From: Methanosaeta sp. PtaB.Bin039
GTDB taxonomy: Archaea; Halobacteriota; Methanosarcinia; Methanotrichales; Methanotrichaceae
DNA length: 25,156 nt
Assembly (NCBI GenBank): GCA_002067795.1
Contig: MVQI01000024.1
Coordinates: 1-25,156 of the forward strand
Direction of reading: 5' to 3'
Shown: positions 4,413 to 22,188 of the stretch, piece by piece
How the letters are laid out: each line of letters opens with the position of its first letter
Numbering within the stretch: position 1 is the stretch's first letter
Notes under the pieces: generated by a model
What the model was told of the DNA's origin: nothing
The model's input: the letters and a program-made list of their open reading frames with translations, nothing else
Databases searched by the model: none
Program-made: the position numbers and the translations under genes

Positions 4413-4422
4413 GTGGGCGTGA

Positions 4423-6329: not shown

Positions 6330-7114
6330 TGATCAAGCTGCAGGCCAAAGAGATAGTCTTCGGCTACGACAGCAATCCCGTTCTGGACAGCGTGAGCTTC
6401 GAGATAGCCCCCTCAAAGCTTGTGACAATCGTCGGGCCCAATGGTTCTGGCAAATCGACCCTGATCAAGTGCATAAACAAAATAGTGTCTCCGCAGGGAG
6501 GAAGCATCCTGATCGACCGAAGAGAGGTAGCGAAGATGACCAGGATGGAGGTAGCCAGATATCTCTCCTATGTCCCGCAAAGCTCGGTGCGCATCTTTCC
6601 CACCAATGTCTTCGACACGATCCTGATGGGCAGAAGGCCCCATATCGGTTGGCTGGGCAGCGAGCGGGATGAAGAGAAGGTCTGGGATGTCTTGCAGCTA
6701 TTGAATATCGAGAGGCTTGCCATGAACAACTTCAGCGAGCTTTCAGGCGGCCAGCAGCAGAAGGTGCTCATTGCCAGAGCGCTTGTTCAGGAAGCGGAGG
6801 TGATGCTTCTTGACGAGCCCACCAGCAACCTGGATATCTGGCACCAGCTGGACGTCATGAACATAATTCGGGACGTCGTCAAGAAGAAGGAGATCACTGC
6901 AATTATGGCCTTGCACGACCTCAACCTGGCGTCATACTACTCGGATCGCATCATAATGATGAAGAGGGGAAAGATCGTGGCAGTCGGCGATCCGCACTCA
7001 GTGATCACAGAGGAGAACATAGCTTCCGTATATCGGGTGCAAGCGGCAGTGCGAAAGCTATCCGATAGGCCGATGATCATGCCACTTCGGCAGATACGTG
7101 GATCCAAGGCCTAA
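6326..7114 (+). CDS. ABC transporter ATP-binding protein (FecE/BtuD-like)
   Basis: The 262-aa ORF has Walker A GPNGSGKST, the signature LSGGQQQKVLIARAL, Walker B MLLDEPTSNLD and an H-loop (ALHD). Its start overlaps the permease stop in an ATGA. Confidence 0.9.
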   Translation: MMIKLQAKEIVFGYDSNPVLDSVSFEIAPSKLVTIVGPNGSGKSTLIKCINKIVSPQGGSILIDRREVAKMTRMEVARYLSYVPQSSVRIFPTNVFDTILMGRRPHIGWLGSERDEEKVWDVLQLLNIERLAMNNFSELSGGQQQKVLIARALVQEAEVMLLDEPTSNLDIWHQLDVMNIIRDVVKKKEITAIMALHDLNLASYYSDRIIMMKRGKIVAVGDPHSVITEENIASVYRVQAAVRKLSDRPMIMPLRQIRGSKA

Positions 7115-8306: not shown

Positions 8307-8663
8307 CTTGATACCTCTCATACAAGCCAAAATCTCTTCGTCTATGACAGATGGCTTAACCGACCTCGTGATATCGGTTCAGTGCCAATATCCGGGCCTT
8401 GGCCAATACGATAATTGAAGCTGCGCCCAACATTTATGAATGTTTCTATATTTAGTAGCACAAAGAATTAATATACGAGAATTGTCTGTGACTGGAGCAG
8501 ATGAAACAGCTGCCAAGATCACATCTGAAATAAGAAATAGCATAGCTGCAATTCGATTCAGATATGTGTCTTCGTTTTCGCCGGGCTGCAAAATCGCCTG
8601 GCGAAAAAAAAGAGACAGAAGATCCCTGCTGTTGACTGGGGAAATGGGAGATGCAAGAGATCG

Positions 8664-10247: not shown

Positions 10248-11204
10248 ATGCCAAACCTCAACGTGGTGGTCCTGGGTCCAGCCGGCTACTCCAAGGAGCT
10301 GGGAAAGACGGGAACCACTAGCGATATGACCTTTTACAATCTGAAAAGGGGCGAGGATACCGTCACCTTCATAGAGCCCACCCGCTACCCGGAACGTCTG
10401 GCACCCCTCTTTTACGCAGCAACTCTTGCCAGGATGGCGGTTTTGGTGGTGGAGAAGATCGATCCGGCATTCGGAGAGTGCGTCCTGATGCTCGACTGCC
10501 TGGGCATATCCTCCGGCTATCTGATCCTCCGCAACTTCATCCAGAAGGAGCAGGTCTTGCCGCTCATCAAGGGAACGGTCGCAGAGGGCTATGAGCTGCT
10601 GGCAGACGATCCCATTGTCCTGCGTGAGCGCCTGCTGGAAGAGGCGACAAAGGAGAATCCGGCCTTAGACGCTCCCGTTGGCAGCATGCCTGTGGACCAC
10701 TTCTTCAGCGTCCGCGGCGTCGGCACGGTTGTCCTTGGTGCTGTCACCCGGGGCAGCTTAAAGAAGCACGACTCGTTGCGAATCCTGCCGGGCGAAAAGA
10801 CCGCCCAGATCCGCTCGATTCAGAAGCACGACCAGGATTTCGATGCGGCTGGTCAGGGTGAGAGGACCGGACTTGCGCTGAAGGGAATAGAGGTGGACGA
10901 CCTTGACCGCGGCGTTGTGCTCACCACTGATCCGTCCATCAAGGTCAGCAGCTCTGTGCAGGCAAAAGCGCGGCTGGTAAAATACTGGCCATCGCCGCTG
11001 AAGGAAGGCATGGTGCTGCACCTGGGCCACTGGATGCAGTTCGTGCCTGCCAGGGTCGAGTCGGCCAGCGGAGACGACTGGCACAGGCCACTTCTTCAGC
11101 TATCCCTCGACAAGCCACTCGTGCATCCGCCAGGCGCCTCTGGAGTGCTCACCTATCCGGAAGGAGGCAAGCTTCGAGTCGTGGGGACGGTAGAGCTGCC
11201 CTGA
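10248..11204 (+). CDS. EF-Tu/SelB-like protein with a degenerate G domain and an intact EF-Tu domain 2
   Basis: The 318-aa ORF has a middle region typical of the EF-Tu domain 2 beta-barrel (FSVRGVGTVVLGAVTRGSLKKHDSLRILPGEKTAQIRSIQKHDQDFDAAGQGERTGLALKGIEVDDLDRG). The N-terminal ~130 aa align positionally with a G domain. The P-loop reads GPAGYSKELGK instead of GHVDHGK(S/T). I can find no DxxG or NKxD motif. Confidence 0.7.
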   Translation: MPNLNVVVLGPAGYSKELGKTGTTSDMTFYNLKRGEDTVTFIEPTRYPERLAPLFYAATLARMAVLVVEKIDPAFGECVLMLDCLGISSGYLILRNFIQKEQVLPLIKGTVAEGYELLADDPIVLRERLLEEATKENPALDAPVGSMPVDHFFSVRGVGTVVLGAVTRGSLKKHDSLRILPGEKTAQIRSIQKHDQDFDAAGQGERTGLALKGIEVDDLDRGVVLTTDPSIKVSSSVQAKARLVKYWPSPLKEGMVLHLGHWMQFVPARVESASGDDWHRPLLQLSLDKPLVHPPGASGVLTYPEGGKLRVVGTVELP

Positions 11205-11440: not shown

Positions 11441-12283
11441 TCACTGGGTCAGCCCTGCCCTCCACTTCAGCATCCTCTCCTCAACCACGTAGCGGAAGGC
11501 CCTGTCGATGAACAGGCCCAGCAATCCCAGGACTATCATGTAGAGGAGCACGTACTCCATCTTGTGCAGGTAGTAGTACGACCAGATGCGGTAGCCCAGC
11601 CCGCTGGTGCTGACACCGAACATCTCTGCAGCTACAAGGCACATCCAGGATATGCCCATGGCGATCCTTACGCCTCCGGCTATTGAGGGCAGGGCGTACG
11701 GGAAAGCCACGTAGCGGATAAGGTCTCGATTGCTTGTAGCACCCAGCACCTTGGCCGACTCCACGAATACCCGAGGCAGGCTTCTAAATCCCACATAGGT
11801 GTTGATCAGTATGGGAAAGACCGCTCCGACAAATACGATGAACCCGGCGGACTCGTGAGTCAGGCCGAACCAGACGATGGCGAACGGTATCCAGGCCAGC
11901 GGAGGTATGGGCCGTATCACCTCCACCATGGGGTCGATCAGCCGGTCCATGTGCCTAGACCATCCCATTCCCATGCCCAGTGGAAGGGCGAGGAGCACTC
12001 CGGCTCCCATGCCCAACCCGAAGTGAAGCAGGCTTATTGGCAGATCCTGAAATATCAGGGTCTTCCAGCTTGCCTCGAGGGCGACGAGGACCTGCAGAAA
12101 GCTGGGCAGGATCAGGGTGTCGCCCACGAGCATTGCCACGGCCTGCCATACAAGGACCAGGCTGGCAAGGGAGAGGGCGGAAATCCACTCCCTGCGAAGC
12201 GTCTTCGCCCAGTCGCCGTTCATCTTCGACTCCTGCCTGAGCCTGGTATCGCGATCCAGCTCATCAGGCCTTCGCCCTGTCAA
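11441..12283 (-). CDS. ABC transporter permease, NitT/TauT (SsuC/TauC-like) family
   Basis: The 280-aa ORF has six hydrophobic segments and sequence character of binding-protein-dependent permeases (VIRPIPPLAWIPFAIVWFG, ESAKVLGATSNRDLIRYVAFPYALPSI). ATG 12223 is an alternative start with a GGAG upstream. The track start at 12283 overlaps the upstream gene by 20 nt. Confidence 0.85.
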   Translation of the reverse strand: MTGRRPDELDRDTRLRQESKMNGDWAKTLRREWISALSLASLVLVWQAVAMLVGDTLILPSFLQVLVALEASWKTLIFQDLPISLLHFGLGMGAGVLLALPLGMGMGWSRHMDRLIDPMVEVIRPIPPLAWIPFAIVWFGLTHESAGFIVFVGAVFPILINTYVGFRSLPRVFVESAKVLGATSNRDLIRYVAFPYALPSIAGGVRIAMGISWMCLVAAEMFGVSTSGLGYRIWSYYYLHKMEYVLLYMIVLGLLGLFIDRAFRYVVEERMLKWRAGLTQ

Positions 12284-13241
12284 AGAAGCTGGTGTCGAAG
12301 AGCTCCTCCTCAGACAGCTCCTTTTGGGTGTAGTTCATCTGATAGTCCACCTTGGCATACTCCAGGGTAGAGGGGATCTGGATGTGGGGATCGCTCACCC
12401 ACTCGCCGTCCCAGTTCTTGACGGAGTGCATGACCGTCTTGAGATCCTGCTTGGTGCGGTTGGCGTAGATCTCCGCAGCCTCCTCCGGATGGGAGTTAAC
12501 ATACTCGGTTGCCTTCAGGTGGGTCTTGACGATCTGAGCCACCAGCTCCGGATTGTCCCGGATCAGCCGGCCGCTGACAACAAGGCTGCAGCAGGCGTGG
12601 TTGGGCCACATCTGGCCGGAGGGCAGCGCCTCCTGTCCTTTGCCCTCCAGGATGACTATCGACGGCGACGGTGCAGGCAGGAAGACCCCATCGACCTTGC
12701 CGGCGGAGATGGCAGTAACTGCATCTCCCGGCCCCATGGGCAGGATCCTTACCTTGTCGATGTCAACTCCGTTTTCCTGCAGCCACTTCTTCATCACAGT
12801 GTCCTGGATTGACCCAGGCGGAAATGTGCCGATGCTCATCCCTTCAAGTGAGGACGGTCCCAGATAGGCTTTATCTGGCCTCAGGACAAGGTCGGAGCCG
12901 TTGGTATTGACGGCGGCCACGATCTTGGCATCCAGGCCGCTGGCAATTGCCGAGATCGGCGGGGCTGTTCCTACGTAGGCCACATCAAGGCTTCCGGCCA
13001 GCATGGCCTGCATCTCAGGCGGACCGGAGGGAAATTCGAACTCCTTTATCTCGGTAATTCCGAAGGGCTTCAAGTCCTCCAGCCACCATCCTTTCTCCAT
13101 GGCCACCATCTCGGCGATCTGGTGGGTGCTGGGCTGGTAACCTATGTTCAATGTGGTCACCTCGGCCTTCTTCTCCGAGATGCAACCCAGCGTAGCAACC
13201 ACTGCCAGGGCAACAACAGCAATAATTATCTGGCTTCTCAA
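12264..13241 (-). CDS. ABC transporter substrate-binding (lipo)protein, NMT1/THI5-SsuA/TauA-like
   Basis: The 325-aa ORF has a TTG start preceded by GGGGTGAT at 5-nt spacing. Its signal peptide ends in a lipobox-like TLGC. The body is typical of NitT/TauT-family binding proteins (LNIGYQPSTHQ..., GSLDVAYVGTAPPISA, IVAAVNTNGSDLV). Confidence 0.85.
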   Translation of the reverse strand: MRSQIIIAVVALAVVATLGCISEKKAEVTTLNIGYQPSTHQIAEMVAMEKGWWLEDLKPFGITEIKEFEFPSGPPEMQAMLAGSLDVAYVGTAPPISAIASGLDAKIVAAVNTNGSDLVLRPDKAYLGPSSLEGMSIGTFPPGSIQDTVMKKWLQENGVDIDKVRILPMGPGDAVTAISAGKVDGVFLPAPSPSIVILEGKGQEALPSGQMWPNHACCSLVVSGRLIRDNPELVAQIVKTHLKATEYVNSHPEEAAEIYANRTKQDLKTVMHSVKNWDGEWVSDPHIQIPSTLEYAKVDYQMNYTQKELSEEELFDTSFFDRAKA

Positions 13242-13301
13242 ATGGCATCACCCCGATGATACTTACGGATCGGATGAATCCATGACTCTGCTCGGTCGGT
13301 T

Positions 13302-13310
13302 TGTATAAAG
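13302..13310 (-). promoter_or_regulatory. Candidate TATA box for the binding-protein/permease operon
   Basis: The minus strand reads CTTTATACA, about 65 nt upstream of the TTG at 13241. The predicted leader would include the GGGGTGAT Shine-Dalgarno site. Confidence 0.3.
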
Positions 13311-13675
13311 TTCTTTCCCGCCAGGCAGCCTATTGTTCCTTTTCGGGCAAATCATCTCTTTGATTTGGACAAAAATATCTCGTATAGAGGTGCAAGCGGC
13401 ATAGATGGTCGCGAAAGGCGATCTGCAGCAAAGCAGATATCCTAAGAGAGCGAACTTGGGGCGAGGCCAGTGGATGCGATTGAGTCATTTTAGGATATGG
13501 CCTTCCGAGGAGACCAGGAGAGAACAGGATGCCTGAAATCCCAAAGGAAAAGAGACGTCTTATCCAAGGACCATGCAGCTCCTGCCAGAAAACTGTTCGA
13601 CGAGACGCAATTTTCGGCAAGATTAGATCCATTTCGCAGGCCAGGGATTCGCATCTACAAGGTTGCAGGTGAATA

Positions 13676-14932
13676 ATGAGATCGGCTTTCGAGATCTCGG
13701 AGAAGATAAGAAGAGGCCACGGAGTGGTGATGACAGTCGGCGAGCTCCAGCATCTGGCCGAGAGCGGAGACGGAGAGGGGATCGAGGAGGTTGACGTCAT
13801 AACCACAGCTACCCGTGCGGTCATGAGCGGAACTTATGCCGTTCTATCCTTTCCGGCAGCCTGTCCGGGCGCGTTCATCAGGGCCAGGTCTGCCAGGCTC
13901 AACGGCGTCTTGGCCAATGTGGGCCCATGCCCCAACGAGCGGCTGGGTGTGCTCGATCTGGTGGTGTTCGGCACCGGACACAGGGATGCCAGATATGGCG
14001 GCGGGCATCTATTCCGGGACCTGGTTGAGGGAAAAGGGGTGACAGTGGAGATCGAGACGTCAGATGGCCGAATCCTGAAGGACGAGACCTCCCTTGCACG
14101 GATGCAGTCCGCGCGGCTATTCGGAAGCCGCCACTGCTTCAAGAACTACTCCGCCTTCGTCAATCCGGGATGCCAGGATGTAAGGACCATATTTCATGCG
14201 GTCGGCTTTCCGCCGAACCTGGCTGCAGCCACCTTCTCCGGATGCGGCCGCTACAGCCCGCTGCAGTGCGATCCTCTTTTAGAGGGCATCGGCGCAGGCA
14301 GCCGAATACTGATGAACGGCGCAACAGGCATGGTAATTGGGCCCGGCACACGCAGCAGCAAACAGCGCCCGAACCTTAGCGGATTTGCCGATATGGCTGG
14401 AATGGACCCGCAGCTGATGGGCGGCTTCATCACGTCGGCAGGCCCGGAATGCATCTGCTCCTGGGCTGTGGCAATCCCTGTTGTCAGCCCATCCATTTTG
14501 CAGGCTGCCCTGACCCCTGACCGGGATATCCACATGCCTGTGATGGACGTCGTAGAGCGCAGGCCACTGGGAGAGGCAGACTACGGCCAGGTCTGGGACG
14601 ATGTGGACCTGGCGGTGCGATTCTCACCTCAGGCGTGCCGAGGCTGCCAGGCCTGCCAGGCAGAGGAGAGCTGTCCCACCCAGGCGATTGGCCGGGATAA
14701 AGGGATAAGGATTGACCGCAGCCTGTGCTTCAACTGTGGGCTTTGTTCTACGATCTGTCCGGACGTCTTCGCCGCCAGGCTGGGATCGATCGGGCTTGCA
14801 GGAAGACAGGTGCCGGTGGCCATGCGCCAGTCTGACCGGGCCAGGGCCCAGAAGATGGCTGCTGACCTGAAACGGCGAATACTCGACGGCTCTTTCCAGA
14901 TAACTCCGATGATCGATGCTATCCGGTTCTAG
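13676..14932 (+). CDS. comF: DUF39/COG1900-domain protein with a C-terminal 2x[4Fe-4S] ferredoxin domain; candidate coenzyme M synthase (ComF/MJ1681-type)
   Basis: The 418-aa ORF has AGGTGA 5 nt upstream of its ATG. The N-terminal ~330 aa read as the DUF39 family (ISEKIRRGHGVVMTVGEL..., VDVITTATRAVMSG, KNYSAFVNPG, GSRILMNGATGMVIGPGTRS). The C-terminus has two Cys clusters, CRGCQACQAEESCP and CFNCGLCSTICP. It is adjacent and convergent to comE and comD. The functional call comes from family knowledge plus context, not from sequence alone. Confidence 0.7.
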   Translation: MRSAFEISEKIRRGHGVVMTVGELQHLAESGDGEGIEEVDVITTATRAVMSGTYAVLSFPAACPGAFIRARSARLNGVLANVGPCPNERLGVLDLVVFGTGHRDARYGGGHLFRDLVEGKGVTVEIETSDGRILKDETSLARMQSARLFGSRHCFKNYSAFVNPGCQDVRTIFHAVGFPPNLAAATFSGCGRYSPLQCDPLLEGIGAGSRILMNGATGMVIGPGTRSSKQRPNLSGFADMAGMDPQLMGGFITSAGPECICSWAVAIPVVSPSILQAALTPDRDIHMPVMDVVERRPLGEADYGQVWDDVDLAVRFSPQACRGCQACQAEESCPTQAIGRDKGIRIDRSLCFNCGLCSTICPDVFAARLGSIGLAGRQVPVAMRQSDRARAQKMAADLKRRILDGSFQITPMIDAIRF

Positions 14933-15449
14933 TGGGGAGACAAGAGGTGAACCGGTCCCGGATCTGAAGAGGGGAGAGTGGGATGATCGGTACTTCGGCG
15001 TTTCCAGGCTCTACCCGGACAACCAGGACGCCGGATCGGTCAAGGCTGCGTCGCAGTTCCTCCGAAGTGGCGGCCTGGCCGACCTCCTCCACGCCGGCTG
15101 CCCTTGCCATCTGGACGAGATCGGTCTTCTGGGCTGTGCAGGTCAGCTGGCAGCCTGTGGAGCCGTAAGAGCAGTTATCAAGGATTATCAGCAGGTAGCC
15201 AGAAGGCGCATGGTGAGCGATCGTGGCCAGGGTGCCCAGGTTCATGAGGACTGAGCCGTCGCCGTCGATGACGAAGACCCGGCGTCCGCTGGCCAGCGCA
15301 AGCCCGAGGCCGATTGAAGAGGCGAGCCCCATCGAGCCCAGCATGTAGAAGTTCTCAGGCCGGTCGTAAACAGCGTAAAGCTCCCTGCTGGGATAGCCGA
15401 TGTTGCAGACGAGCAGGGCTTTCTGCCTCACAGCCTGCCCCGCCACCAC
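14919..15449 (-). CDS. comE: Sulfopyruvate decarboxylase beta subunit (TPP-binding)
   Basis: The 176-aa ORF has the thiamine-diphosphate motif VIDGDGSVLMNLG...IILDN and the conserved NIGYPSRELY and FYMLGSMGLASSIGLGLA blocks. The track start is GTG 15449. The frame stays open upstream to 15485 (see findings). Confidence 0.85.
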   Translation of the reverse strand: MVAGQAVRQKALLVCNIGYPSRELYAVYDRPENFYMLGSMGLASSIGLGLALASGRRVFVIDGDGSVLMNLGTLATIAHHAPSGYLLIILDNCSYGSTGCQLTCTAQKTDLVQMARAAGVEEVGQAATSEELRRSLDRSGVLVVRVEPGNAEVPIIPLSPLQIRDRFTSCLPTRTG

Positions 15450-15493
15450 CTCGATAGCCTCGATGCGTCTCGTATACAGGCCTCCTCAGCTCT

Positions 15494-16072
15494 TCAGATC
15501 CCCTTCCAGAAGTCCAGGTCGAGGAGCACTGCCGCCAGAGTACCCCTTTCCCATGCTGCTGCAGCGGCATGGGCCACGAACGACCTGGCCTGCTGCGGCC
15601 GTGGTGTCCAGCTTGGTATGCCCAGAGCATCCAGCAAGGGCGCGGTCAGCCGGCCCATCGGGATCTGGCCGGAGATCTTCTCCCCACTGGACCCCCTGTG
15701 GCTTATTATCATCAGCAGGGGCAGCCCGTAGAGCTGATCCAGCGAGGCAAGGGCGTTGATGCTATTTCCCAGGCCGGAGTTTTGCATCAGAAGTGCAGGA
15801 CGGAGGCCTCCCAGGAAAGCTCCGGCGCAGATCCCTACCCCCTCCTCCTCCCTGGTGACCGGGACGAAGCGTATCTCAGGATCTGCCTCGACCATAGTCA
15901 GCAGCTCCTGTAGGTTGATGCAGGGGACGCTGGCCGCAAAGTCGATCCCGCCATCCTTCATCCCCATGAAGATCCAATGGCTTGGGCTCGCAGGATGCTG
16001 GCCAAAAGTGGCCGAATGTCCATCAGAATCGGCTTGCCTGGGCGTTGGCGGCTTGATGTCCATCACCTTCAT
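15494..16072 (-). CDS. comD: Sulfopyruvate decarboxylase alpha subunit
   Basis: The 192-aa ORF resembles a TPP-enzyme PYR domain (GIDFAASVPCINL, VTREEEGVGICAGAFLGG, LLMQNSGLGNSINALASL, PLLMIISHRG). It lies immediately upstream of comE on the same strand. A GGAGA lies 13 nt upstream of the ATG. Confidence 0.85.
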   Translation of the reverse strand: MKVMDIKPPTPRQADSDGHSATFGQHPASPSHWIFMGMKDGGIDFAASVPCINLQELLTMVEADPEIRFVPVTREEEGVGICAGAFLGGLRPALLMQNSGLGNSINALASLDQLYGLPLLMIISHRGSSGEKISGQIPMGRLTAPLLDALGIPSWTPRPQQARSFVAHAAAAAWERGTLAAVLLDLDFWKGI

Positions 16073-16128
16073 CTGCTGCAGCTTCTCTCCTGTTTTTCAG
16101 TGGATAAGCGACACCATCGTGGAGGATT

Positions 16129-16575
16129 TCAACGGCTGATGTTTCCGCCGCTGGCCTGGCCGCCCCTCAGATCTGCAGAGCCGGAGAGCTGTTCTTCAAG
16201 CAGAGTGATCATCCAGTTGTAGGCATCCTTAAGCCCCTGCACGTAGCCGGCCTTATACCCCTCCTGGTATCCCCGCAGATAGTCTTCCTGGACATCGGCA
16301 GATGGAGCGGTCCCTGCGAAGCGGCTCGATTGCGATCCTGCCATCCCGTATCCGGATGTGGCCGCGGTCCCTGTCGAGTGAGCCGAAGCAGACTTCTCTG
16401 AAGAGGAGGTCTTGCTCTGCAGCTCGGATCTCGTTGTCGAGGACCCATTGCCGATCGGATTTTGGCCTTCGGCCTCGTCAGGTCCAAAATCCTCGTCCCA
16501 TGGCTGGGATATGCCTGATGATCCTCCCACCACGGCAGCCCCCAGCACGATCAGAAGTAGCGCCAATCGCATCAT
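16129..16575 (-). CDS. Small secreted or membrane-anchored low-complexity protein, hypothetical
   Basis: The 148-aa ORF has GGAGAGG 7 nt upstream of its ATG. It has an N-terminal hydrophobic segment (MMRLALLLIVLGAAVVGG), a Ser/Thr/Gly-rich middle and a Tyr/Gly-rich C-terminal block (YLRGYQEGYKAGYVQGLKDAY). It ends 56 nt upstream of comD on the same strand. Confidence 0.55.
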   Translation of the reverse strand: MMRLALLLIVLGAAVVGGSSGISQPWDEDFGPDEAEGQNPIGNGSSTTRSELQSKTSSSEKSASAHSTGTAATSGYGMAGSQSSRFAGTAPSADVQEDYLRGYQEGYKAGYVQGLKDAYNWMITLLEEQLSGSADLRGGQASGGNISR

Positions 16576-16937
16576 GATTTATCCTCTCCAGGAAGTGCTG
16601 GCCTCTCCTGCCTGCCAGCATATTGATCCACCGCTATGCCCTCTTTGGGCACCCAGCAGATATAATTTAGCCTGCTCTTCCGCATGGCCTGAAAGCCAGC
16701 TGCCTAAATAGAACATCTCACCCGCGGCTGCACAGCAGCTCTATTTCTTCTCTTCGTCGGCGCGTCTCATCCACTTAAGCAATATCCCGATCAGAGCCTG
16801 CGGTTGATGGACGCTTTACTGTCTGGACGAGGGGGCTATCCATCAGCCGAAAAGCAGGTGCCTGGACGGCATGACGGATGAAATAGCTGCTGGCGGCCCT
16901 CTGCATGGACTCAGCGAAATTGTCCAGCCATAGCAAA

Positions 16938-16945
16938 GATATAAA
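16938..16945 (+). promoter_or_regulatory. Candidate TATA box for the secreted-protein gene
   Basis: GATATAAA lies in the divergent intergenic region. It is only about 10 nt upstream of ATG 16956. A transcript from this box would start downstream of that ATG, which favours the in-frame TTG at 16995, itself preceded by GGTGAGG. Confidence 0.3.
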
Positions 16946-16955
16946 TGGATTTAAC

Positions 16956-17819
16956 ATGACAAATTATATTAGAGATTCGTTTGGGGTGAGGCAATTGAGA
17001 AAGTTCGCTGTAGCTATGCTGGCGTGCCTTATGGTTTTATTACTTGCCACTCAGGCATCGGCCAGCCTGGATCAGTTCGCCGGACGCTGGGTCAACGCGG
17101 ACTCAGCCACAAGGGGAGTAACCACACTGGAGATAACCGTATCGGATAGCGATGCAACCGTCCAGGCCTGGGGCAGCTGCGTGCCGACCGACTGCGACTG
17201 GGGAGCGGTGCAGGCCGTGGCCTACGCGCCGGACGTATCTTCGGATATTGCCAGCACCGCCCTGGCCCTGACAGCTGGGTTTGATCCCGGATTTGCAGAG
17301 ACATTGATGGTAATCAGGCCAGACGGCGATCAGCTGTCGGTTCAGACCTTCACAAGGTTCAAGGACAGCAGCGGCCGCAGCAACTACGCTGCCGAGTACA
17401 GCTTCGTCAAAGAGGCGGGCGTTGTGCCCGAAGGACAGACTCCTGAGGGTGGCCTGCCCCCAGAAGGACAGACGCCTGAAGGCGGGCTGCCTGAGGTTGC
17501 CTTGCCAGCCCCAAGGCTGATCTCGCCGGTCGATGGGGTCGTATTCTACCACTACCCCAGGACAACTACATTGGCCTGGGAGCCGGTGGAGGGAGCCGAT
17601 ATCTATGGAGTTGAGATCGACTGCTTCCACTGCTGCCAGTCAGGCCAGTGGTGCACCGATGTCGGAGACACTTATCGGGTAGTGGACTTGCTGAACACAA
17701 CCAGCTACACCTTCGACTTCGTCGGTGCTCAGCCAGGTCGGTGGAGAGCCTGGGCCATCAGCCCGTCTGGAGAGATCGGTGAGAAATCGGCGTGGTGGGG
17801 ATTCGAGTACACCCAGTGA
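16956..17819 (+). CDS. Secreted hypothetical protein with a tandem-repeat linker and a Cys-rich C-terminal beta-domain
   Basis: The track ORF is 16905..17819. Plausible starts are ATG 16956 or TTG 16995, the latter giving MRKFAVAMLACLMVLLLATQASA, a classical signal peptide with an AxA site. The PEGQTPEGGLP linker occurs twice. The C-terminal domain contains CFHCCQSGQWC. I recognise no family. Confidence 0.65.
   Translation: MTNYIRDSFGVRQLRKFAVAMLACLMVLLLATQASASLDQFAGRWVNADSATRGVTTLEITVSDSDATVQAWGSCVPTDCDWGAVQAVAYAPDVSSDIASTALALTAGFDPGFAETLMVIRPDGDQLSVQTFTRFKDSSGRSNYAAEYSFVKEAGVVPEGQTPEGGLPPEGQTPEGGLPEVALPAPRLISPVDGVVFYHYPRTTTLAWEPVEGADIYGVEIDCFHCCQSGQWCTDVGDTYRVVDLLNTTSYTFDFVGAQPGRWRAWAISPSGEIGEKSAWWGFEYTQ
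17427..17492 (+). repeat. Two tandem 33-nt in-frame repeats encoding PEGQTPEGGLP
   Basis: Unit 1 is 17427..17459 and unit 2 is 17460..17492. The units differ only at third codon positions (ccc/cca, act/acg, gag/gaa, ggt/ggc, ggc/ggg, ccc/cct). Confidence 0.9.
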
Positions 17820-17842
17820 CATAGGCAGAGACTAAGGGCTGC

Positions 17843-17885
17843 TTTTTTTTCCGAAAGAGAATTTGGCCGGAAAATTTTTCCGGCC
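17843..17885. terminator. T8 run plus GGCCGG/CCGGCC hairpin between convergent genes
   Basis: TTTTTTTT at 17843..17850 lies 24 nt after the stop at 17819. The palindrome GGCCGGAAAATTTTTCCGGCC at 17865..17885 presents T-runs on both strands. The convergent gene ends at 17992. Confidence 0.5.
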
Positions 17886-17991
17886 CCATATTTTCCTGTC
17901 GTTTCCCACACAAACCGACTTGGGCGGAGGTGAAGGGCCAATCATCCGGATCGTGCAGGATTGCTTTTCAGATCACGGATTGATTCGGACC

Positions 17992-18651
17992 TTACCAAAC
18001 CTTCAGGTCTATCCCCTCAATCCTCACCATCCGACCCTCGGAGTGCACAACCACTCCGGAATGCACCTTCTGCATCATGCAGTGCTCAGGCAGGAAACGG
18101 ACGGTCTGGCCCACAGACGGGATACTGCCACGGACCACCAGGCCTTCAAATGCTGCCACCATGCAGACGCCAAGGTCGTTGTATTCGGCCTGCTGTCCCA
18201 GCAGGTGCAGCGGGCCTACCATATGAACGGTCAGAATGCCGTGCTCCCATCCAAGCACCCGGGCGAAATGGGTCACCGGACAACCAAGTGGGCGATAGCG
18301 GATAAGGTCGCCTGGGCAAAATGTGAGACTTCGATCGAATGGAAATAGGTCCTCACGACAGGAGGGCTCGCCAGGCAGCGGCCCCAATGAGAAGTCAGCC
18401 AAAAGGCCGTCTATAACTCCCCGAACAGTCTCCTCCGACGCGGCCCTATTGCCGGAGAGGACTTCTCGGATGCCTTCTGCATGTCCTGCAAAGCGCTCCT
18501 GCCCAAGATAGGGACACTGCCCCGTATCGCCGCCACCGCTTGCCAGCAGCTGAGCGAAATTTTGGCAGCTCCTCTGGCCGCACTCTCCGCAGTTGAATCC
18601 GGGAAGCAGCCGCTCCACCTGTTCTGATAGGTTCAAGGCCTTGGTCCTCAC
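17992..18651 (-). CDS. Fe-S cluster domain protein (RnfB/CdhE-N-terminal-type 4Fe-4S motif) with an uncharacterised C-terminal domain
   Basis: The 219-aa ORF has the N-terminal motif C-x2-C-x4-C-x16-C ([31 protein letters not shown]). I do not recognise the C-terminal ~140 aa; it appears beta-rich. The GTG start overlaps the upstream stop in a GTGA. Confidence 0.7.
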
Positions 18652-19346
18652 TCACCGGAGTATTCCATAAATCCGTCCATATGCCTGAGAACACCCCGGT
18701 GATATCGCTTGGAGACTCGCAGCTCGCCGCTGCAAAGAGTGCAGACGGCCAGCGGCGGATTGTGGCGGAGCATCATATTCTCTGCGGCAGGCGGAAGCGC
18801 CCGGATTATCTCTGCCAGATCGCTCCCGCCCTTCCCGGTAAGTCCATTGGCCTCAACTATCCTGCAATGCGGATTGGCCTCGAGCACCCTCTCTCTGAAA
18901 ACCTCGCGCTCGGCCTGCGATACCAGATCGCATTTGGTCGTGACCACCACGTCTGCGGTGGTCAGAAGCGGTCCAACCTTGAGCGGGGTGTTGGGTCCGG
19001 TCGTAACATCGATCACGCAGACGGCCAGGCAGTGGTCGGGATAGGGGGCGCACCTGAGACACAGCCCGGCAGTCTCGTTGAGCAGGACATCTGCATCCTG
19101 CTTCTTTGCCCATTCGAGCATCTCGTCCACGTTATATATGGAGAAGTGATCGGGACACATGTCCCTGGAGAGCGCCACATGTACCGGAATTCCCAGGCGG
19201 CCGATGCGCTTGTCGTCCTCAGTCCACAGGCAGTCCACCTTTACAACTGCTGGCCGGCTGCCGGATCCCTCAAGACACCTGGCCGCATGCATCAGGACCG
19301 ATGTCTTGCCTGATCCGGGGGTGCCAGCTATCACCACAAGCTTCAC
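18648..19346 (-). CDS. G3E-family P-loop GTPase (HypB/UreG/CobW-like), Cys-rich
   Basis: The 232-aa ORF has Walker [10 protein letters not shown], a switch region [12 protein letters not shown] (compare the ExxG-plus-Cys metal sites of HypB and COG0523) and the guanine-specificity motif TKCD. It also has a C-terminal CTLC. The GTG start overlaps the upstream stop in a GTGA. Confidence 0.75.
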
Positions 19347-20104
19347 AGGGCCGCCTCCGCGGCGCTGACGGTCTCACCCCTGCGAATGGCCTCCCGCAGG
19401 TTGATCAGCCACCGGTCCACACGGCTCAAGCTGTTACAGACCTTTTGCTCCTCCTCGCTTGTCTGGATTACCCGGACCATATTTCCCTTCTTCATGACCA
19501 CACGCCGAGAGGTCATAAGGGCCAGGACCGGATCATGGGTGACCACCACCACGATCTTGCCCTCGCCTGCCAGGAGCTTGAGAGCCTCTTGCTTCTTGAT
19601 CCCGGCATTTTCTATCTCGTCGATGAGGACAATTGGAGAGTCGCTGATAACCGCTATATCGGCTGTCATCAGGGCCCGCGACTGGCCTCCGCTCAGAGCG
19701 GTCAGGTGGTGCTCCGGGTGTATGGGCTCGCCGGTCAGGGTGTTGGCGAGATCTATCACCTTTGCGATCAGGTTCTCCTCCCTACCACGGCTCTTTGCAT
19801 GCATTGCCAGGAAGTCCGAGACCGTCATATCTGCCAGGAAATGCATATTCTGGGAGAGCTGAGCCACAGGCTTTCTGCGCGGATCTGCCCTGACCTCTGC
19901 ATCTGGAGGCTGGCCATCGATGAGCACCTGGCGGCGGGATTCCGTATCTCTTTGGGCAAACTGCTCCAGGTCGGATATCAGCGTGCTCTTCCCTGACCCG
20001 GTTGGCCCAACGATTCCGACGATCTCGCCGCTATCGATATGTAGTGTCTCTATGTGATCCGCACATCCATCTTTGTCCACGCCACCCAGAATTGTAAGCC
20101 TCAA
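19343..20104 (-). CDS. Atypical soluble ABC-type ATPase with no adjacent permease
   Basis: The 253-aa ORF has Walker [10 protein letters not shown], the signature LSGGQSRAL, Walker B and D-loop [12 protein letters not shown] (not the transporter-type DEPTxxLD) and an H-loop VTHD. It has a ~40-aa C-terminal extension. The TTG start lies 6 nt after the cysteate synthase stop, with an AGGAG inside that gene's 3' end. Confidence 0.8.
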
Positions 20105-20110
20105 TTTTCG

Positions 20111-21409
20111 TCAACTCCTGATGAACTCCAGTACCTGCTTCTCCAGGTCGTCGGCCGGATGCCCCGGCCTGACCTTCATCTGGCAGGGAAGGATCGACGG
20201 CCCTAGTTCTTCCCAGGACCGCTTGACACCGCCTCCTGTGATGTTTAGGAGGACCATCTCTTCCTTTCTTACCGCCCCATCCTCCATTGCTTTCAGAAGC
20301 GCTGCAACTGCCACTGCTGGCGCCGGGAGGATGTCTATGCCTTCGCTGGACTCAAACAGCTGCCTGGCAGCTTCAGCCTCATCGTTGGCGACCCCCAAAA
20401 CAGCTCCGCTCGTCTCACGCAGGGCCTGCTCAACCCCCCCAGGAATGGCGTAGGGTGGATTTCTGTTGAACAGGACATCGTCATACATCTCATCCGGGCA
20501 GCCAAGCCCTTTCCATATCTCCGATAATCCTGACGGGGACTCGCCGCCAGGACCCGTCCATAGCCTATGAATAGGCGCACATGGCAGGTTTTGGGCCAGA
20601 TGCAGCCTGGGGATATTTGATCCGAAGCGGCCGTCTCCCGCCAGCCGCAATGCCGCCTCCCACGCAGCGATACCGCCGGTGCCGCTGCCCACTGCCTGGA
20701 AGTAATGATCTGGGATCACACCTGCGGTTGCGGCTGCCTCCAGCATCACTGTGCCCATCCCGTCACGCCGGGCGATGTTCCTGGCGCCGCCTTCCGGAAG
20801 GAATCCGGGGCGGCTGGCCAGACGGTCGGCCGCCTGTATGGCGTCAAGATAGTCGCCTTCTACTCCTGCCAGGCAGATCCGCCCGGGCTCCACCGTGGTC
20901 CACAGCCTGTGCAGAGAGGACGTCGGTACAAAAAGGACAACGGGTCGACCGGTCAGCGAGGCGGTCTGGGCGAAGGCCCTGGCTGTATTTCCTGCCGATG
21001 CCACAACCAGTACAGGGGCATTGTGCCCTCCCGGCACTCCGGCGACGGGCCTGGCAGTCTCGGATAGGCGCTGCATCGTGGGAGCTGCTTCCAGCTCCTT
21101 GAAGCTGCCGGTGACCATCGATGCTCCCATCTCTGGCCAAAAACCGGAGAAGCTTATAAAGAGCCTCTGAAGGCCTATCTCCCTGGCCAGTCCCTGGCTC
21201 TGATAGCACACCGATCCGGCGCCAGTTCGCATATCAGGGCTCTTTACCGGAAGCCAGGCAAGATGACGCCATACACCCGGCAGGTCCGCTATCTCCAGCC
21301 GCTTCTGGGAATAGACCGCACGCGGCAGCCCAGGATCCAGCCGACAGCTAGTGGCCAGATCATGGAGGACGGAGCCGCAGCCCTGGCAGCATACCTTGTA
21401 ATCTCCCAT
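20111..21409 (-). CDS. Threonine-synthase-family PLP enzyme; called as cysteate synthase from context
   Basis: The 432-aa ORF has an N-terminal Cys pair (VCCQGCG), the PLP-lysine motif TGSFKE and the ASAGNTARAF block typical of the ThrC fold type II family. GAGAGGT lies 9 nt upstream of the ATG. Linkage to comD, comE and a ComF-type gene matches the cysteate route of CoM synthesis in Methanosarcinales. By eye, sequence alone cannot separate cysteate synthase from ThrC. Confidence 0.75.
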   Translation of the reverse strand: MGDYKVCCQGCGSVLHDLATSCRLDPGLPRAVYSQKRLEIADLPGVWRHLAWLPVKSPDMRTGAGSVCYQSQGLAREIGLQRLFISFSGFWPEMGASMVTGSFKELEAAPTMQRLSETARPVAGVPGGHNAPVLVVASAGNTARAFAQTASLTGRPVVLFVPTSSLHRLWTTVEPGRICLAGVEGDYLDAIQAADRLASRPGFLPEGGARNIARRDGMGTVMLEAAATAGVIPDHYFQAVGSGTGGIAAWEAALRLAGDGRFGSNIPRLHLAQNLPCAPIHRLWTGPGGESPSGLSEIWKGLGCPDEMYDDVLFNRNPPYAIPGGVEQALRETSGAVLGVANDEAEAARQLFESSEGIDILPAPAVAVAALLKAMEDGAVRKEEMVLLNITGGGVKRSWEELGPSILPCQMKVRPGHPADDLEKQVLEFIRS

Positions 21410-21450
21410 GATACACAGACCTCTCTCGCGGGGGCATATAATGTTTTCTG

Positions 21451-21458
21451 TTTATATC
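21451..21458 (-). promoter_or_regulatory. Candidate TATA box for the cysteate synthase operon
   Basis: The minus strand reads CGATATAAA within the AT-rich divergent region 21410..21669. The predicted transcription start leaves a ~20-nt leader that contains the GAGAGGT Shine-Dalgarno site. A second TATA-like ATTATATG at 21435..21442 is an alternative. Confidence 0.3.
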
Positions 21459-21641
21459 GATTTTTTATCCTTATTGGGAATATTGACAAATATAAGTTTC
21501 CTTTAATGGATACATTCCGGCCGAAAACATGCCAATTGGACCCGGCGGCAGGGGATGGATGAGTGCCCTTCAGAGCAGTAGCAGCATGCTGGAATGGCCC
21601 TTCTAATTCCCGCGGTTATCAGCATTGGATTCCAAAAGTAC

Positions 21642-21655
21642 AAATATCATAAAAT
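21642..21655 (+). promoter_or_regulatory. Candidate TATA box for the XRE regulator (leaderless start)
   Basis: AAATATCATAAAAT is centred about 20-25 nt upstream of ATG 21670. There is no Shine-Dalgarno-like sequence between them. Confidence 0.3.
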
Positions 21656-21669
21656 CGTAACCCAATAGT

Positions 21670-22188
21670 ATGCCACATACCGACCGGGTGATGAGAGCGG
21701 CCTTCCAGTCAGACGAGGCTTTGCGGGAGGCCATGAAGGCCGTCCTCGGCGAACTGGGCATGAGCGCGCGGGAGTTCTCCAAGCATTCTGGAATACCCCA
21801 GAGCACACTTTACAAGATCTTATCAGGCCATCGGGAGCCGAACATAACCACGCTTCGCCAGATCGTCCGAACAATCAGGCAGCTCGAGGGATCTGACGCC
21901 AAGTTCATAGCCATCATAGCTGCGAGGCCGGTTCTGGACAAGATCGAGGAGAAGAAGATGCGCATCGGCGACCGGATGATGACACTCCGAGAGTACTCGG
22001 CAACCAACATCGAGGAGGCCATTATCGCTGCAGTGCGAGCCGAGGCCGACGGAGCCGCAGCCCTGGTCTGTGCCCCAATCGTCAGCCCAACCGTAGAGAA
22101 GCTGCTATCCATCCCGGTAGCAACAATAATTCCCAGGGAGAGCGTCCTTCGGGCCATCGAGGTGGCTGCGAGAAAGGCGGAGGAATGA
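21670..22188 (+). CDS. XRE/Cro-type helix-turn-helix transcriptional regulator with an uncharacterised C-terminal domain
   Basis: The 172-aa ORF has the HTH segment LGMSAREFSKHSGIPQSTLYKILSGHREPNITTLRQIV. I could not assign the C-terminal ~90 aa (FIAIIAARPVLD..., ALVCAPIVSPTVEKLL). It is transcribed divergently from the cysteate synthase operon. Confidence 0.75.
   Translation: MPHTDRVMRAAFQSDEALREAMKAVLGELGMSAREFSKHSGIPQSTLYKILSGHREPNITTLRQIVRTIRQLEGSDAKFIAIIAARPVLDKIEEKKMRIGDRMMTLREYSATNIEEAIIAAVRAEADGAAALVCAPIVSPTVEKLLSIPVATIIPRESVLRAIEVAARKAEE

Follow-up and report, generated by a model that had tools for sequence, protein, structure and literature searches.

The window analysed here is the entire 25,156-bp contig of the metagenome-assembled genome 'Methanosaeta sp. 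PtaB.Bin039', an uncultured methanogen that uses acetate (Methanotrichaceae). The following genes and sites were located in it:

11441–12283, minus strand: ssuC-like ABC permease, NitT/TauT family (Pfam BPD_transp_1, 80 bits)
12264–13241, minus strand: ssuA-like substrate-binding protein (TIGR01728 SsuA family, 164.6, barely above the cutoff of 163.5; Pfam NMT1_2, 132.7 bits)
13676–14932, plus strand: comF, methanogenesis marker 16 (MMP16) metalloprotein (TIGR03287, 483.5 against a cutoff of 363.95)
14919–15449, minus strand: comE, sulfopyruvate decarboxylase beta subunit (TIGR03846, 225.9, barely above the cutoff of 221.5; Pfam TPP_enzyme_C)
15494–16072, minus strand: comD, sulfopyruvate decarboxylase alpha subunit (TIGR03845, 199.3 against a cutoff of 147.95; Pfam TPP_enzyme_N)
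16129–16575, minus strand: 148-aa protein, hydrophobic at its N-terminus, that includes a Ser/Gly-rich region
16905–17819, plus strand: 304-aa protein with a signal-like segment, a linker of PEGQTPEGGLP repeats and a C-terminal domain rich in Cys
17865–17885: hairpin with a perfect 9-bp stem, GGCCGGAAA(A/T)TTTTCCGGCC, between two convergent units
17989–18072: 84-bp segment at the 3' end of the COG2000 gene, delimited by blastn against related contigs
17992–18651, minus strand: COG2000 Fe-S protein (PF04060), last gene of the cs operon
18648–19346, minus strand: Cys/His-rich G3E-family P-loop GTPase, CobW/HypB/UreG-like (Pfam cobW, 51 bits)
19343–20104, minus strand: stand-alone ABC-type ATPase (Pfam ABC_tran, only 59.8 bits)
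20111–21409, minus strand: cs, cysteate synthase, first gene of the cs-ATPase-GTPase-FeS operon (TIGR03844, 545 bits against a cutoff of 324.9)
21436–21479, minus strand: cs promoter region, from an alignment of 33 HTH-cs intergenic regions
21670–22188, plus strand: XRE-type regulator, divergent from cs (HTH_3)

Profile searches confirmed that the six gene types named in an earlier note on this DNA are intact ORFs at the positions given there and belong to the families assigned to them, but the gene list of that note had missed the ATPase, GTPase and Fe-S protein genes between comD and cs. Judged against public gene calls, four of the longest ORFs probably begin too far upstream. The TIGR03845 alignment begins at comD residue 33, and the probable start at 15967 gives 157 aa (157 or 192 aa in public calls, depending on the assembly); the true start of the permease is probably near 12223, which gives 260 aa as in public calls. 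For MMP16 an alternative start lies at 13730 (400 aa in public calls), and the COG2000 protein is called at 214 aa.

The ThrC-like product proved to be a cysteate synthase rather than a threonine synthase, as the earlier note had proposed. It matches the solved 'Cysteate synthase' (PDB code 9k3c) with 292 bits (E = 1e-85), compared to at most 50 bits (E = 3e-12 or worse) for threonine synthases in the PDB, and the NCBIfam thrC models give no more than 78 bits, short of their cutoffs (39.6 bits on TIGR00260, cutoff 167; 78 bits on PRK08197, cutoff 303). Cysteate synthase was reportedly first described for Methanosarcina acetivorans MA3297. The comF gene is convergent with comE, with an overlap of 14 bp, and an identical ComF protein is present in nine further contigs. 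Its Pfam HcyBio domain spans residues 17–409 and contains Fer4 motifs at 314–366, and the translation carries the cysteine motifs CxxCxxCx5CP and CxxCxxCx3CP (residues 321–333 and 351–361). MMP16 and L-ASST proteins are told apart by the nested ferredoxin domain and the absence of a CBS domain (PMC12068725). Having a ferredoxin domain within COG1900 and lacking CBS, the DUF39 protein of the earlier note is indeed of the MMP16/ComF type and not of the L-ASST type. L-ASST (MA1821/MA1822; MJ0100; COG1900a) shares the COG1900/HcyBio superfamily and an analogous aldehyde-to-thiol chemistry, but has C-terminal CBS domains and a separate small ferredoxin. MJ1681, the ComF of M. jannaschii (COG1900d/TIGR03287), likened here via the equivalog model, has the same build of COG1900 with an inserted 2×[4Fe-4S] ferredoxin, whereas the present host uses the cysteate route and not the ComABC route.

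The three genes downstream of cs are translationally coupled to it. The ATPase starts 7 bp past the end of cs, and the ATPase/GTPase and GTPase/Fe-S junctions overlap by 4 bp each. The order cs-ATPase-GTPase-FeS is kept in 51 of the 64 species-representative loci with enough flank, and median identities are 71% for the ATPase, 75% for the GTPase (across Methanotrichaceae) and 60% for the Fe-S protein, each above the 56% of cs. In some ANME-2 loci the Fe-S gene adjoins comD, and the ATPase and GTPase genes are not nearby. The translated ATPase has a Walker motif, the signature LSGGQ, a Walker B motif LIDE and an H-loop VTHD; it matched no NCBIfam equivalog, and no transmembrane partner is encoded within the cs operon. 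The GTPase carries GxxGxGKT, ETAG and TKCD motifs, resembles HypB and UreG in the PDB (E = 1e-6 to 1e-5), and reaches 54.9 bits on the hypB model TIGR00073, under the cutoff of 121.2. In the COG2000 protein, an N-terminal four-cysteine domain resembling RnfB and CFeSP domains precedes a β-rich C-terminal domain with invariant Cys124, His128, Cys191 and His197, for which no structural relative was found. An ATPase, a 'Ni2+-binding GTPase' and a COG2000 protein, of the same families and with no difference in kind, are described as 'often colocalized, role unknown' with CoM synthesis genes (PMC12068725, Fig 2B). We would guess that the trio forms a nucleotide-driven metalloprotein module, aiding the synthesis of cysteate or the reductive reaction of ComF, for instance through metal-site maturation or the supply of electrons or sulfite.

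The earlier note had also nominated neighbouring uncharacterized genes as pathway accessories. This suits the trio, which the note overlooked and PMC12068725 flags, but fails for the ORFs at 16129–16575 and 16905–17819. Neither product has a Pfam, NCBIfam or PHROG match; both look like secreted proteins from their sequences and probably lie outside the CoM pathway. Among the related loci compared, the 148-aa protein is confined to the same species, and a homologue of the 304-aa protein (49–52%) adjoins comD in one other lineage; outside close relatives, the two do not accompany CoM genes. The hairpin at 17865–17885 looks like a bidirectional terminator in a consensus scan that applies bacterial rules to an archaeal host.

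The permease reaches 114–160 bits on the NCBIfam SaoP, NtrB, TauC and SsuC models, below every equivalog cutoff, and its gene comes after ssuA in 43 of 53 related loci. Among 48 ssuA loci from related metagenomes, ssuA-ssuC is divergent from comD-comE-MMP16 in 16, and ssuA is divergent from an HTH regulator in 10. As in bacterial SsuABC/TauABC and in MA0063-65, an SsuA-family binding protein is combined with a TauC/SsuC-like permease, the link to CoM being one of context; unlike in the bacterial systems, ssuA-ssuC is accompanied by comF or an XRE regulator and not by ssuDE-type desulfonation genes. No NitT/TauT-type ABC ATPase gene adjoins the permease in the window, and the importer is therefore incomplete here; its ATPase would be encoded elsewhere. 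The M. acetivorans ssuA/ssuC transporter is reported to be CoM-specific and induced upon CoM starvation (PMC12068725). From this one statement and the gene context, we infer that ssuA-ssuC imports CoM or a related sulfonate, with the ssuA product as the candidate CoM/sulfonate-binding subunit.

Family assignments and gene order, which are established directly, make it very probable that the region serves to supply CoM (2-mercaptoethanesulfonate) in a Methanotrichaceae archaeon using the phosphoserine/cysteate ('type 2') route. The type 2 reading of the earlier note holds: three of the four steps are encoded here, together with a sulfonate-type transporter and a regulator; the missing step, as the note had said, is the aminotransferase, for which profile searches found no gene within the 25,156 bp. 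Catalytic functions are drawn from published work on orthologues, by which cysteate synthase would convert O-phospho-L-serine and sulfite to L-cysteate, and a general aminotransferase encoded at an unlinked site would yield sulfopyruvate. The split thiamine-diphosphate enzyme ComD/ComE would decarboxylate this to sulfoacetaldehyde, and ComF (MMP16) would then exchange the aldehyde for a thiol, with electrons arriving via the inserted two-cluster ferredoxin domain. The predicted transcription units are cs-ATPase-GTPase-FeS, transcribed from a leaderless promoter; the regulator, which diverges from it; comD-comE, perhaps preceded by the 148-aa ORF; and comF divergent from ssuA-ssuC.

Two other functions for the locus were weighed against CoM supply. 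An amino-acid locus for Thr/Met, with an ordinary threonine synthase and a homocysteine-forming L-aspartate-semialdehyde sulfurtransferase, is suggested by the superfamilies, since both include such enzymes (PALP/ThrC-like; Pfam 'Homocysteine biosynthesis enzyme', HcyBio), and L-ASST partly replaces ComF in M. acetivorans (PMC12068725). The family scores effectively refute this reading, which retains hardly any probability: cs passes the cysteate synthase equivalog and prefers the solved cysteate synthase over threonine synthases by the margins given above, while the DUF39 protein scores above the MMP16 equivalog cutoff, contains the inserted ferredoxin, is without the CBS domains characteristic of L-ASST and is encoded convergently with comDE. 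It is also highly improbable that the genes serve sulfonate scavenging or degradation instead of cofactor synthesis, with SsuAC taking up taurine, cysteate or alkanesulfonates, the sulfopyruvate decarboxylase and cysteate enzyme being catabolic or sulfur-assimilating, and the regulator responding to sulfonates. Bacterial sulfonate degradation also uses sulfopyruvate decarboxylase, which counts in favour of scavenging. Bacterial SsuA/TauA-family transporters likewise work in sulfur scavenging (NCBIfam names; PMC6491703). However, the host lineage uses MCR, needs CoM and has no alternative CoM route (PMC12068725, S1 Table), and MMP16 is confined to archaea that metabolise alkanes and correlates with the synthesis of sulfoacetaldehyde (PMC12068725). 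The same genes in M. acetivorans respond to CoM starvation and are repressed by 1 µM CoM (PMC12068725), and profile searches of the window found no enzyme for desulfonation, whether of the SsuD, Xsc or sulfite-lyase type.

With CoM supply as the preferred reading, the composition of the trio and the integrity of the contig were also considered. The ATPase at 19343–20104 could be the missing SsuB of the SsuAC importer, leaving the 'trio' as a transporter gene with two unrelated neighbours: it has a full set of ABC motifs, and ssuC lacks a neighbouring SsuB-type gene both in the window and in the other lineage where the 304-aa homologue adjoins comD (L091/L092). We regard this as unlikely, as the protein scores about 50–60 bits on all transporter ATPase models with no TauB/SsuB-type match, whereas true NitT/TauT ATPases beside ssuAC in other lineages reach 123 bits on ABC_tran. 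Translational coupling ties it to the GTPase and Fe-S protein and not to ssuC, and its arrangement is kept in 54 of 71 loci, with ssu genes nearby or not. Two ANME-2 contigs (L020/L023) hold the trio with no ssu gene on the contig, and other ANME-2-related contigs (L173/L176) carry a complete ssuA-ssuC-ssuB operon. A misjoining of the comD and cs halves inside the COG2000 gene, as an assembly artefact, is suggested by seven same-species contigs (L001–L006 and L093) that are 99.7% identical to the window until 18072 and then enter unrelated AT-rich DNA, stopping within about 1.1–1.3 kb. The junction is nevertheless spanned in the window's order by two independent Logan assemblies (L007, 12 kb, and L008), and four contigs from the same JGI samples (L179–L182) run HTH-cs-ATPase-GTPase-FeS and then into a tyrosine integrase. 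Since the gene order of L007 is identical and sub-blocks of the window recur in dozens of related genomes, the arrangement is neither chance nor chimera, and we assign the artefact a negligible probability.

The two contig sets meet in the 84-bp segment at 17989–18072: L001–L006 lose their match to the window after 18072, the match of L179 starts at 17989, and the shared 84 bp lie at 1864–1946 in L179 and 14314–14397 in L001. In the other strains the segment is duplicated, flanking an AT-rich element with an integrase (PF00589), which adjoins it in L179–L182. Its presence on both contig sets therefore indicates site-specific insertion (attL/attR) at the 3' end of the COG2000 gene in those strains; the attachment site in the window is empty.

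A cluster for CoM synthesis and import is ordinary, as it has already been described. Chadwick et al. 2025 (PMC12068725) showed by genetics that MMP16 is the ComF of M. acetivorans, whose cs, comDE and MMP16 genes lie side by side (MA3297-99), and saw clustering of MMP16 with CoM genes across six orders. Deletion of cs or comDE makes growth dependent on CoM, the MMP16 deletion mutant is a CoM auxotroph without sulfide, and CoM starvation induces cs, comDE, ssuA and ssuC; Methanotrichaceae are scored there as positive for cs, comD, comE and mmp16 and negative for comABC. The link that the earlier note drew between the ComF-type gene and the cysteate route is thus correct but no longer new, as adjacency, genetics, clustering and transporter are all reported in that study. 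The M. acetivorans cluster MA3297 (cs)-MA3298 (comDE)-MA3299 (MMP16/comF) holds the same three type 2 enzymes, with the aminotransferase unlinked in both. In the window, however, comD and comE are separate genes and not fused as in MA3298, three divergent/convergent units replace a single run, cs shares its operon with the trio, and transporter and regulator lie within the same 11 kb, whereas ssuBCA of M. acetivorans is at MA0063-65.

The single new lead of the locus looks to be the regulator, as a possible CoM sensor. It is divergent from cs in 30 of 43 loci, with a median identity of 83% across Methanotrichaceae. An N-terminal HTH_3 domain is followed by an alpha/beta domain whose fold resembles PrpR_N or a single lobe of a LacI-type binding protein; no curated family covering this C-terminal domain was found. 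Compared to the PrpR N-terminal sensor (2pju, 2q5c) it is a single lobe only, of ~95 residues, and the protein differs from PrpR and XRE-family one-component regulators in being archaeal and having no AAA+ or sigma-54 module. The cs promoter has a TATA box (TTATAT, 21436–21441) with a purine-rich BRE-like stretch; the box ends 26 nt upstream of the ATG, a spacing that implies a leaderless mRNA. In relatives, a conserved palindrome abuts the BRE/TATA elements (consensus TCACAATTAGGACAAAATTTGTCCCC; PWM of 26.7 bits from the 33 aligned regions). The window carries a 26-nt operator-like site at 21454–21479, which owing to a degenerate right half-site scores 16.7, compared to 20.5–40.7 in relatives, and the palindrome itself has zero matches in the window at ≤3 mismatches. 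Among 55 unique regions upstream of ssuA the motif is mostly missing, reaching at least 12 bits in four, two of them independent.

Homologues of the regulator are divergent from ssuA-ssuC(-ssuB) on ANME-2-related contigs and in Ca. Methanofastidiosum, which has MCR yet none of the CoM synthesis genes (PMC12068725, S1 Table); ssu genes are absent from two of the four regulator contexts of ANME-2 type. Its position beside cs and that of its homologues beside ssuA-ssuC(B), including in this CoM-synthesis-free lineage, make the protein a candidate CoM-homeostasis regulator. Its C-terminal domain might sense CoM status and so control the cs promoter, and in other genomes the regulator may control ssuABC. 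In M. acetivorans, MA0067, annotated as an 'HTH domain-containing protein' and possibly a member of this family, lies beside ssuBCA.

All six genes named in the earlier note, both com genes included, are present as open reading frames at the coordinates assigned to them, and they belong to the families that had been claimed. Three further genes, which the note had missed, lie on the same strand as the cysteate synthase gene (cs) and directly downstream of it. The window proteins, from the whole 25,156-bp contig, carry the accessions OPX79605-OPX79613; going by public gene calls, the longest-ORF starts of several genes are probably too far upstream. The features are as follows, with model scores given against their cutoffs.

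11441-12283, minus strand: TauC/SsuC-like permease (ssuC), below all equivalog cutoffs, a family-level likeness only
12264-13241, minus strand: SsuA-family binding protein (ssuA), TIGR01728 164.6 against 163.5 (borderline), NMT1_2 132.7 bits
13676-14932, plus strand: methanogenesis marker 16 protein (MMP16, ComF), TIGR03287 483.5 bits against 363.95, aligned over its full length (18-409)
14919-15449, minus strand: sulfopyruvate decarboxylase beta subunit (comE), TIGR03846 225.9 against 221.5, a marginal pass
15494-16072, minus strand: sulfopyruvate decarboxylase alpha subunit (comD), TIGR03845 199.3 against 147.95
17992-18651, minus strand: COG2000/PF04060 Fe-S protein, PF04060 38.6 against 23
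18648-19346, minus strand: GTPase of the G3E family, a distant relative of HypB and UreG
19343-20104, minus strand: ABC-type ATPase with every nucleotide-binding motif, ABC_tran only ~60 bits
20111-21409, minus strand: cysteate synthase (cs)
21670-22188, plus strand: XRE-family regulator with an HTH_3 DNA-binding domain

The proposal that the ThrC-like protein is a cysteate synthase is supported by its match to TIGR03844 (545 bits, cutoff 324.9), which stands above the thrC-type models, the best of these reaching 78.4 bits against a cutoff of 303. Residues 21-400 align with the PDB entry ‘Cysteate synthase’ (PDB code 9k3c; E = 1e-85, 292 bits), and no solved threonine synthase exceeds 49.6 bits. 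The predicted activity, from sequence, is the formation of cysteate from phosphoserine and sulfite. Among the proteins looked up there is no record of the exact window cs and GTPase sequences, and near-identical copies were obtained via the proteins P0001 and P0402. ComD and ComE carry the Pfam domains TPP_enzyme_N and TPP_enzyme_C, and reach 98-132 bits on the phosphonopyruvate decarboxylase model, under its cutoff of 312.5. An aminotransferase gene is absent from the window, as the earlier note had stated.

The DUF39 protein had to be distinguished from L-ASST, its homocysteine-forming relative (MA1821/MJ0100). L-ASST possesses a C-terminal CBS pair and a separate ferredoxin subunit, whereas the window protein has an internal ferredoxin domain and no CBS. 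Its Fer4 domain (residues 314-366), with the eight Cys residues of a ferredoxin domain, is nested within the HcyBio (COG1900) domain (residues 17-409), and the four-Cys motifs CRGCQACQAEESCP and CFNCGLCSTICP can be seen in the translation. A search for CBS domains gave no match at E ≤ 0.01, and the pair found in the L-ASST type (COG1900a) is not present. A ferredoxin placed inside COG1900 is the architectural mark that separates MMP16 from L-ASST (Chadwick et al. 2025, PLoS Genet, PMC12068725), and with the equivalog passed the assignment to the MMP16/ComF type holds. A PDB sequence search with MMP16 returned matches to ferredoxin domains alone, and no COG1900 structure. The conversion of sulfoacetaldehyde to coenzyme M (CoM) by ComF is known from expression of MJ1681 in E. 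coli and from M. acetivorans genetics (PMC12068725), and by analogy the window protein is predicted to catalyse the same step. In the window, MMP16 is convergent with comE; at least 16 related loci contain a comD-comE-MMP16 run.

The claim that this locus ties a ComF-type gene to the cysteate route outside Methanococcales is correct, and genetic evidence for it has already been published (PMC12068725). In M. acetivorans, cs (MA3297), comDE (MA3298) and MMP16 (MA3299) are adjacent, and deletion of MMP16 results in CoM-dependent growth and in CoM auxotrophy without sulfide, from which MMP16 was identified as the primary ComF (PMC12068725). Across GTDB, the presence of MMP16 correlates with that of sulfoacetaldehyde-synthesis genes, with physical clustering in six orders, and Methanotrichaceae are listed in S1 Table as positive for cs, comD, comE and mmp16 and negative for comABC (PMC12068725). 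The interpretation of the locus is therefore supported, and the locus adds one more example, this one in a MAG of an uncultured member of the Methanotrichaceae from an anaerobic bioreactor, to a type of CoM biosynthesis locus that is already published. As the genes, their clustering and the ComF assignment were all published in 2025, the cluster itself adds little, and its value is that of comparative material. What is worthwhile beyond this is a candidate CoM regulator, the link of the three additional genes to the cs operon, and an integration site in the COG2000 gene.

The three additional genes follow cs closely: 7 bp separate the end of cs from the start of the ATPase gene, and both the ATPase/GTPase and the GTPase/Fe-S junctions are 4-bp overlaps. 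No transporter equivalog was matched by the ATPase, which is a soluble ABC protein. The GTPase scores 51 with Pfam cobW (cutoff 20.7), 54.9 with the hypB equivalog (cutoff 121.2) and 29.8 with ureG (cutoff 204); judged by these scores, it is a distinct subfamily within the metallochaperone class and falls into none of the named subfamilies. In the COG2000 protein, the N-terminal four-Cys cluster motif (Cys21, Cys24, Cys29, Cys46), of the kind present in CFeSP and RnfB, does not vary among 17-45 homologues, and Cys124, His128, Cys191 and His197 are invariant even among members that are 32-54% identical. Its PDB matches are CFeSP and RnfB only, and no structural relative of its C-terminal β domain was found, though the model is confident. 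The family is small, with 177 cluster representatives in 1.84 billion proteins.

A 10-sequence alignment served as the query for COG2000 loci; 80 species-representative loci were gathered around the homologues, and the window proteins were mapped onto them. The three genes are adjacent in 54 of the 71 loci with enough flank, and cs lies directly upstream of them in 51 of 64. Median identities to the window proteins are 75% for the GTPase, 71% for the ATPase, 60% for the Fe-S protein, 56% for cs and 83% for the regulator; cs is less constrained than the trio. There are ANME-2 loci in which comD comes next after the Fe-S gene and the ATPase and GTPase genes are not nearby. The location of the trio within the cs operon sharpens the question of what these ATPase, GTPase and Fe-S genes do. 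Our guess is a nucleotide-dependent metalloprotein module that would serve cysteate synthesis or the reductive ComF step. In a further reading, weaker than the one proposed below for the regulator, the trio would form a nucleotide-driven metalloprotein that has a 4Fe-4S domain and an invariant 2Cys-2His site and would deliver sulfite or reducing power to the pathway; a part in sulfite supply would fit the close coupling of the trio to cs, whose product catalyses the step that consumes sulfite.

Contigs nearly identical to the window (99.7%) were found in metagenomes of anaerobic digesters, and also in two NCBI MAGs that carry the label Methanotrichaceae; the host is accordingly an acetoclastic methanogen of the Methanothrix/Methanosaeta lineage. 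Seven contigs of the same species match the window up to position 18072 only, within the COG2000 gene, then continue into AT-rich DNA and end, and a mis-join of the window at this point was considered. Two independent assemblies (L007, L008) cross position 18072 in the gene order of the window. Moreover, four contigs from the same JGI samples (L179-L182) carry the regulator, cs, ATPase, GTPase and Fe-S genes, and immediately after these a gene for a tyrosine integrase in DNA of 38% GC; 84 bp of the window (17989-18072) occur on both sets of contigs (L001 14314-14397; L179 1864-1946). These crossing assemblies and the attL/attR evidence rule out a chimera. From the split matches and the doubled 84 bp it follows that in other strains an element has integrated into the COG2000 gene at its 3′ end. 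An 84-bp direct repeat flanks this element and keeps the gene intact, and in the window the site is empty. The element (regions L001 14314-15692 and L179 1-1946) is AT-rich (35-38% GC) and encodes a tyrosine integrase, and the contigs break inside it; a gene of the CoM cluster, by its 3′ end, serves a mobile element as integration site. Scanning the window for Rfam families and tRNAs gave nothing, neither a riboswitch nor a tRNA att site.

The suggestion that neighbouring genes of unknown function are pathway accessories may hold for the trio, and does not extend to the two ORFs between comD and the cs operon (16129-16575 and 16905-17819). Both have hydrophobic N-termini and low-complexity linkers, neither matched a family, and they recur in close relatives only; we do not regard them as accessories of the pathway. 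The larger ORF encodes a secreted-looking protein of 304 residues with PEGQTPEGGLP in tandem as its linker and a C-terminal domain rich in Cys, and a homologue with 49-52% identity adjoins comD in another lineage (L091/L092). A PHROG scan of the ORFs and of an ORF in the inserted element yielded nothing useful.

The XRE-type regulator is divergent from cs, at a distance of no more than 700 bp, in 30 of 43 loci. Its identity is 76-88% across Methanotrichaceae and 61-66% in ANME-2-related contigs, and its C-terminal part contains the invariant motifs FIAxIAARPVLD, REYSAT, LVCAPIVSPTVEK and IPVATIxP. Homologues with 44-80% identity are divergent from ssuA-ssuC(-ssuB), and not from cs, in Ca. Methanofastidiosum (L142-L151, L155, L160), in ANME-2-related contigs (L173, L174, L176) and in the locus L128. 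In two ANME-2-type contexts the regulator faces a complete ssuA-ssuC-ssuB operon, and in two others the ssu neighbour is lost and the opposite flank kept. The Ca. Methanofastidiosum homologues, 44% identical, stand beside ssuA-ssuC together with a convergent NitT/TauT ATPase. Methanofastidiosum is listed as MCR-positive and lacking comA/B/C/D/E, cs, mmp16 and cog1900 (S1 Table, PMC12068725), and is thus a predicted CoM auxotroph. In some of its contigs (for example L146, 7344-7880), the regulator frame is open for ~175 codons and the first ATG, GTG or TTG gives only 82 residues, which suggests an unusual start codon or recent start-codon loss; the copy in contig L142 has a normal ATG.

In metagenome loci with an ssuA homologue, ssuC is the next gene in 43 of 53. 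Of the 48 loci with a long enough upstream flank, 16 have MMP16, backed by comE-comD, divergent from ssuA, 10 have a regulator homologue in that place and 22 have neither, so that comF or the regulator is the partner of ssuA in 26 of these 48. The permease scores 160 with SaoP (cutoff 295), 126 with TauC (342) and 114 with SsuC (347). A NitT/TauT-type ATPase gene was found neither beside ssuC in the window nor in L091/L092, and one is present beside the ssu genes in ANME-2-related and Methanofastidiosum loci. CoM starvation of M. acetivorans induces ssuA and ssuC (PMC12068725). Gene context makes CoM the candidate substrate of the ssuA-ssuC importer.

For the cs promoter, 33 regulator-cs intergenic regions were aligned, the cs-upstream regions being those of loci L010-L088. 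An invariant AAAYAGAAAAC-RTTATAT (BRE/TATA), strongly conserved across Methanotrichaceae, ends 23-26 nt before the ATG of cs, which implies a leaderless cs transcript. It is preceded directly by a 26-nt element, also conserved, that contains the palindrome AGGACAAA-N-TTTGTCC. With the weight matrix of this element (26.7 bits), the cs promoter is recovered from nearly every Methanotrichaceae locus, and there are few other matches. The window promoter (21436-21479) scores 16.7, as it has only the left half of the palindrome, the right half having decayed. The full palindrome had no match in the window within three mismatches, and the half-site is not enriched there (7 observed, 4.9 expected). 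Upstream of ssuA the motif is rare: it was found in 4 of 55 unique regions, two of them independent, against 0.2% of shuffles. This was not counted as support, and an operator common to cs and ssuA is not established.

Based on the ssu and cs contexts and on its fold, the regulator family is a good candidate for a regulator of CoM homeostasis. We would put at slightly less than even the chances of a more specific proposal, in which the regulator is a member of a highly conserved archaeal family, as yet undescribed, that uses a PrpR_N-like C-terminal domain to sense CoM status and controls both arms of CoM supply. CoM itself, or else a sulfonate of the pathway, would be the ligand. In CoM producers (Methanotrichaceae), the protein would control the cs operon via the ACAATTAGGACAAA-N-TTTGTCC palindrome abutting BRE/TATA; in other lineages, including Ca. 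Methanofastidiosum, it would control the ssuABC importer. The same might apply to MA0067 of M. acetivorans, annotated as ‘HTH domain-containing protein’ and located beside ssuBCA (MA0063-65). CoM supply limits methanogenesis, and the inhibitor bromoethanesulfonate enters the cell through the importer; studies of methanogen physiology and work on methane mitigation would therefore profit from a defined sensor and operator. If the proposal is true, the regulator is the factor behind the CoM-starvation response of the M. acetivorans MMP16 deletion strain. No regulator is named in PMC12068725, and literature searches for a CoM-responsive one, and also for COG2000 and MA0067, gave nothing beyond that paper.

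Beyond the CoM genes, those that respond most strongly to CoM starvation in M. acetivorans are MA4558, for a cobalamin-dependent protein (log2FC 8.4), MA4562, MA4561, MA4556 (GTP-binding protein) and MA4165 (methylcobalamin:CoM methyltransferase) (S4 Table, PMC12068725). These genes are without homologues in the window. MA4558 is mtsH, a methylsulfide methyltransferase gene. The induced MA4556 belongs to the MA4556-62 group beside the induced MA4558, outside the CoM cluster.

Past ssuC, the gene at 10248-11204 encodes a 318-residue protein with EF-Tu domain 2 (SelB/EF-1alpha-like middle domains) and no match to a GTPase domain. Its homologues (66-70% identical) lie just past ssuC in the Methanotrichaceae loci L010, L091 and L126, and synteny is thus conserved. 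The 374-residue protein at 7206-8330 has an FmdE domain in its C-terminal part only (residues 202-269), the N-terminal 200 residues having no family match. A FecCD-type ABC importer occupies 2433-7114, with a binding protein (2433-3572), a permease (5199-6329) and an ATPase (6326-7114) that bears the NCBI name BtuD-like, and it is split by a SAM-methyltransferase gene (3576-4412) and a band-7/slipin gene (4423-5202).
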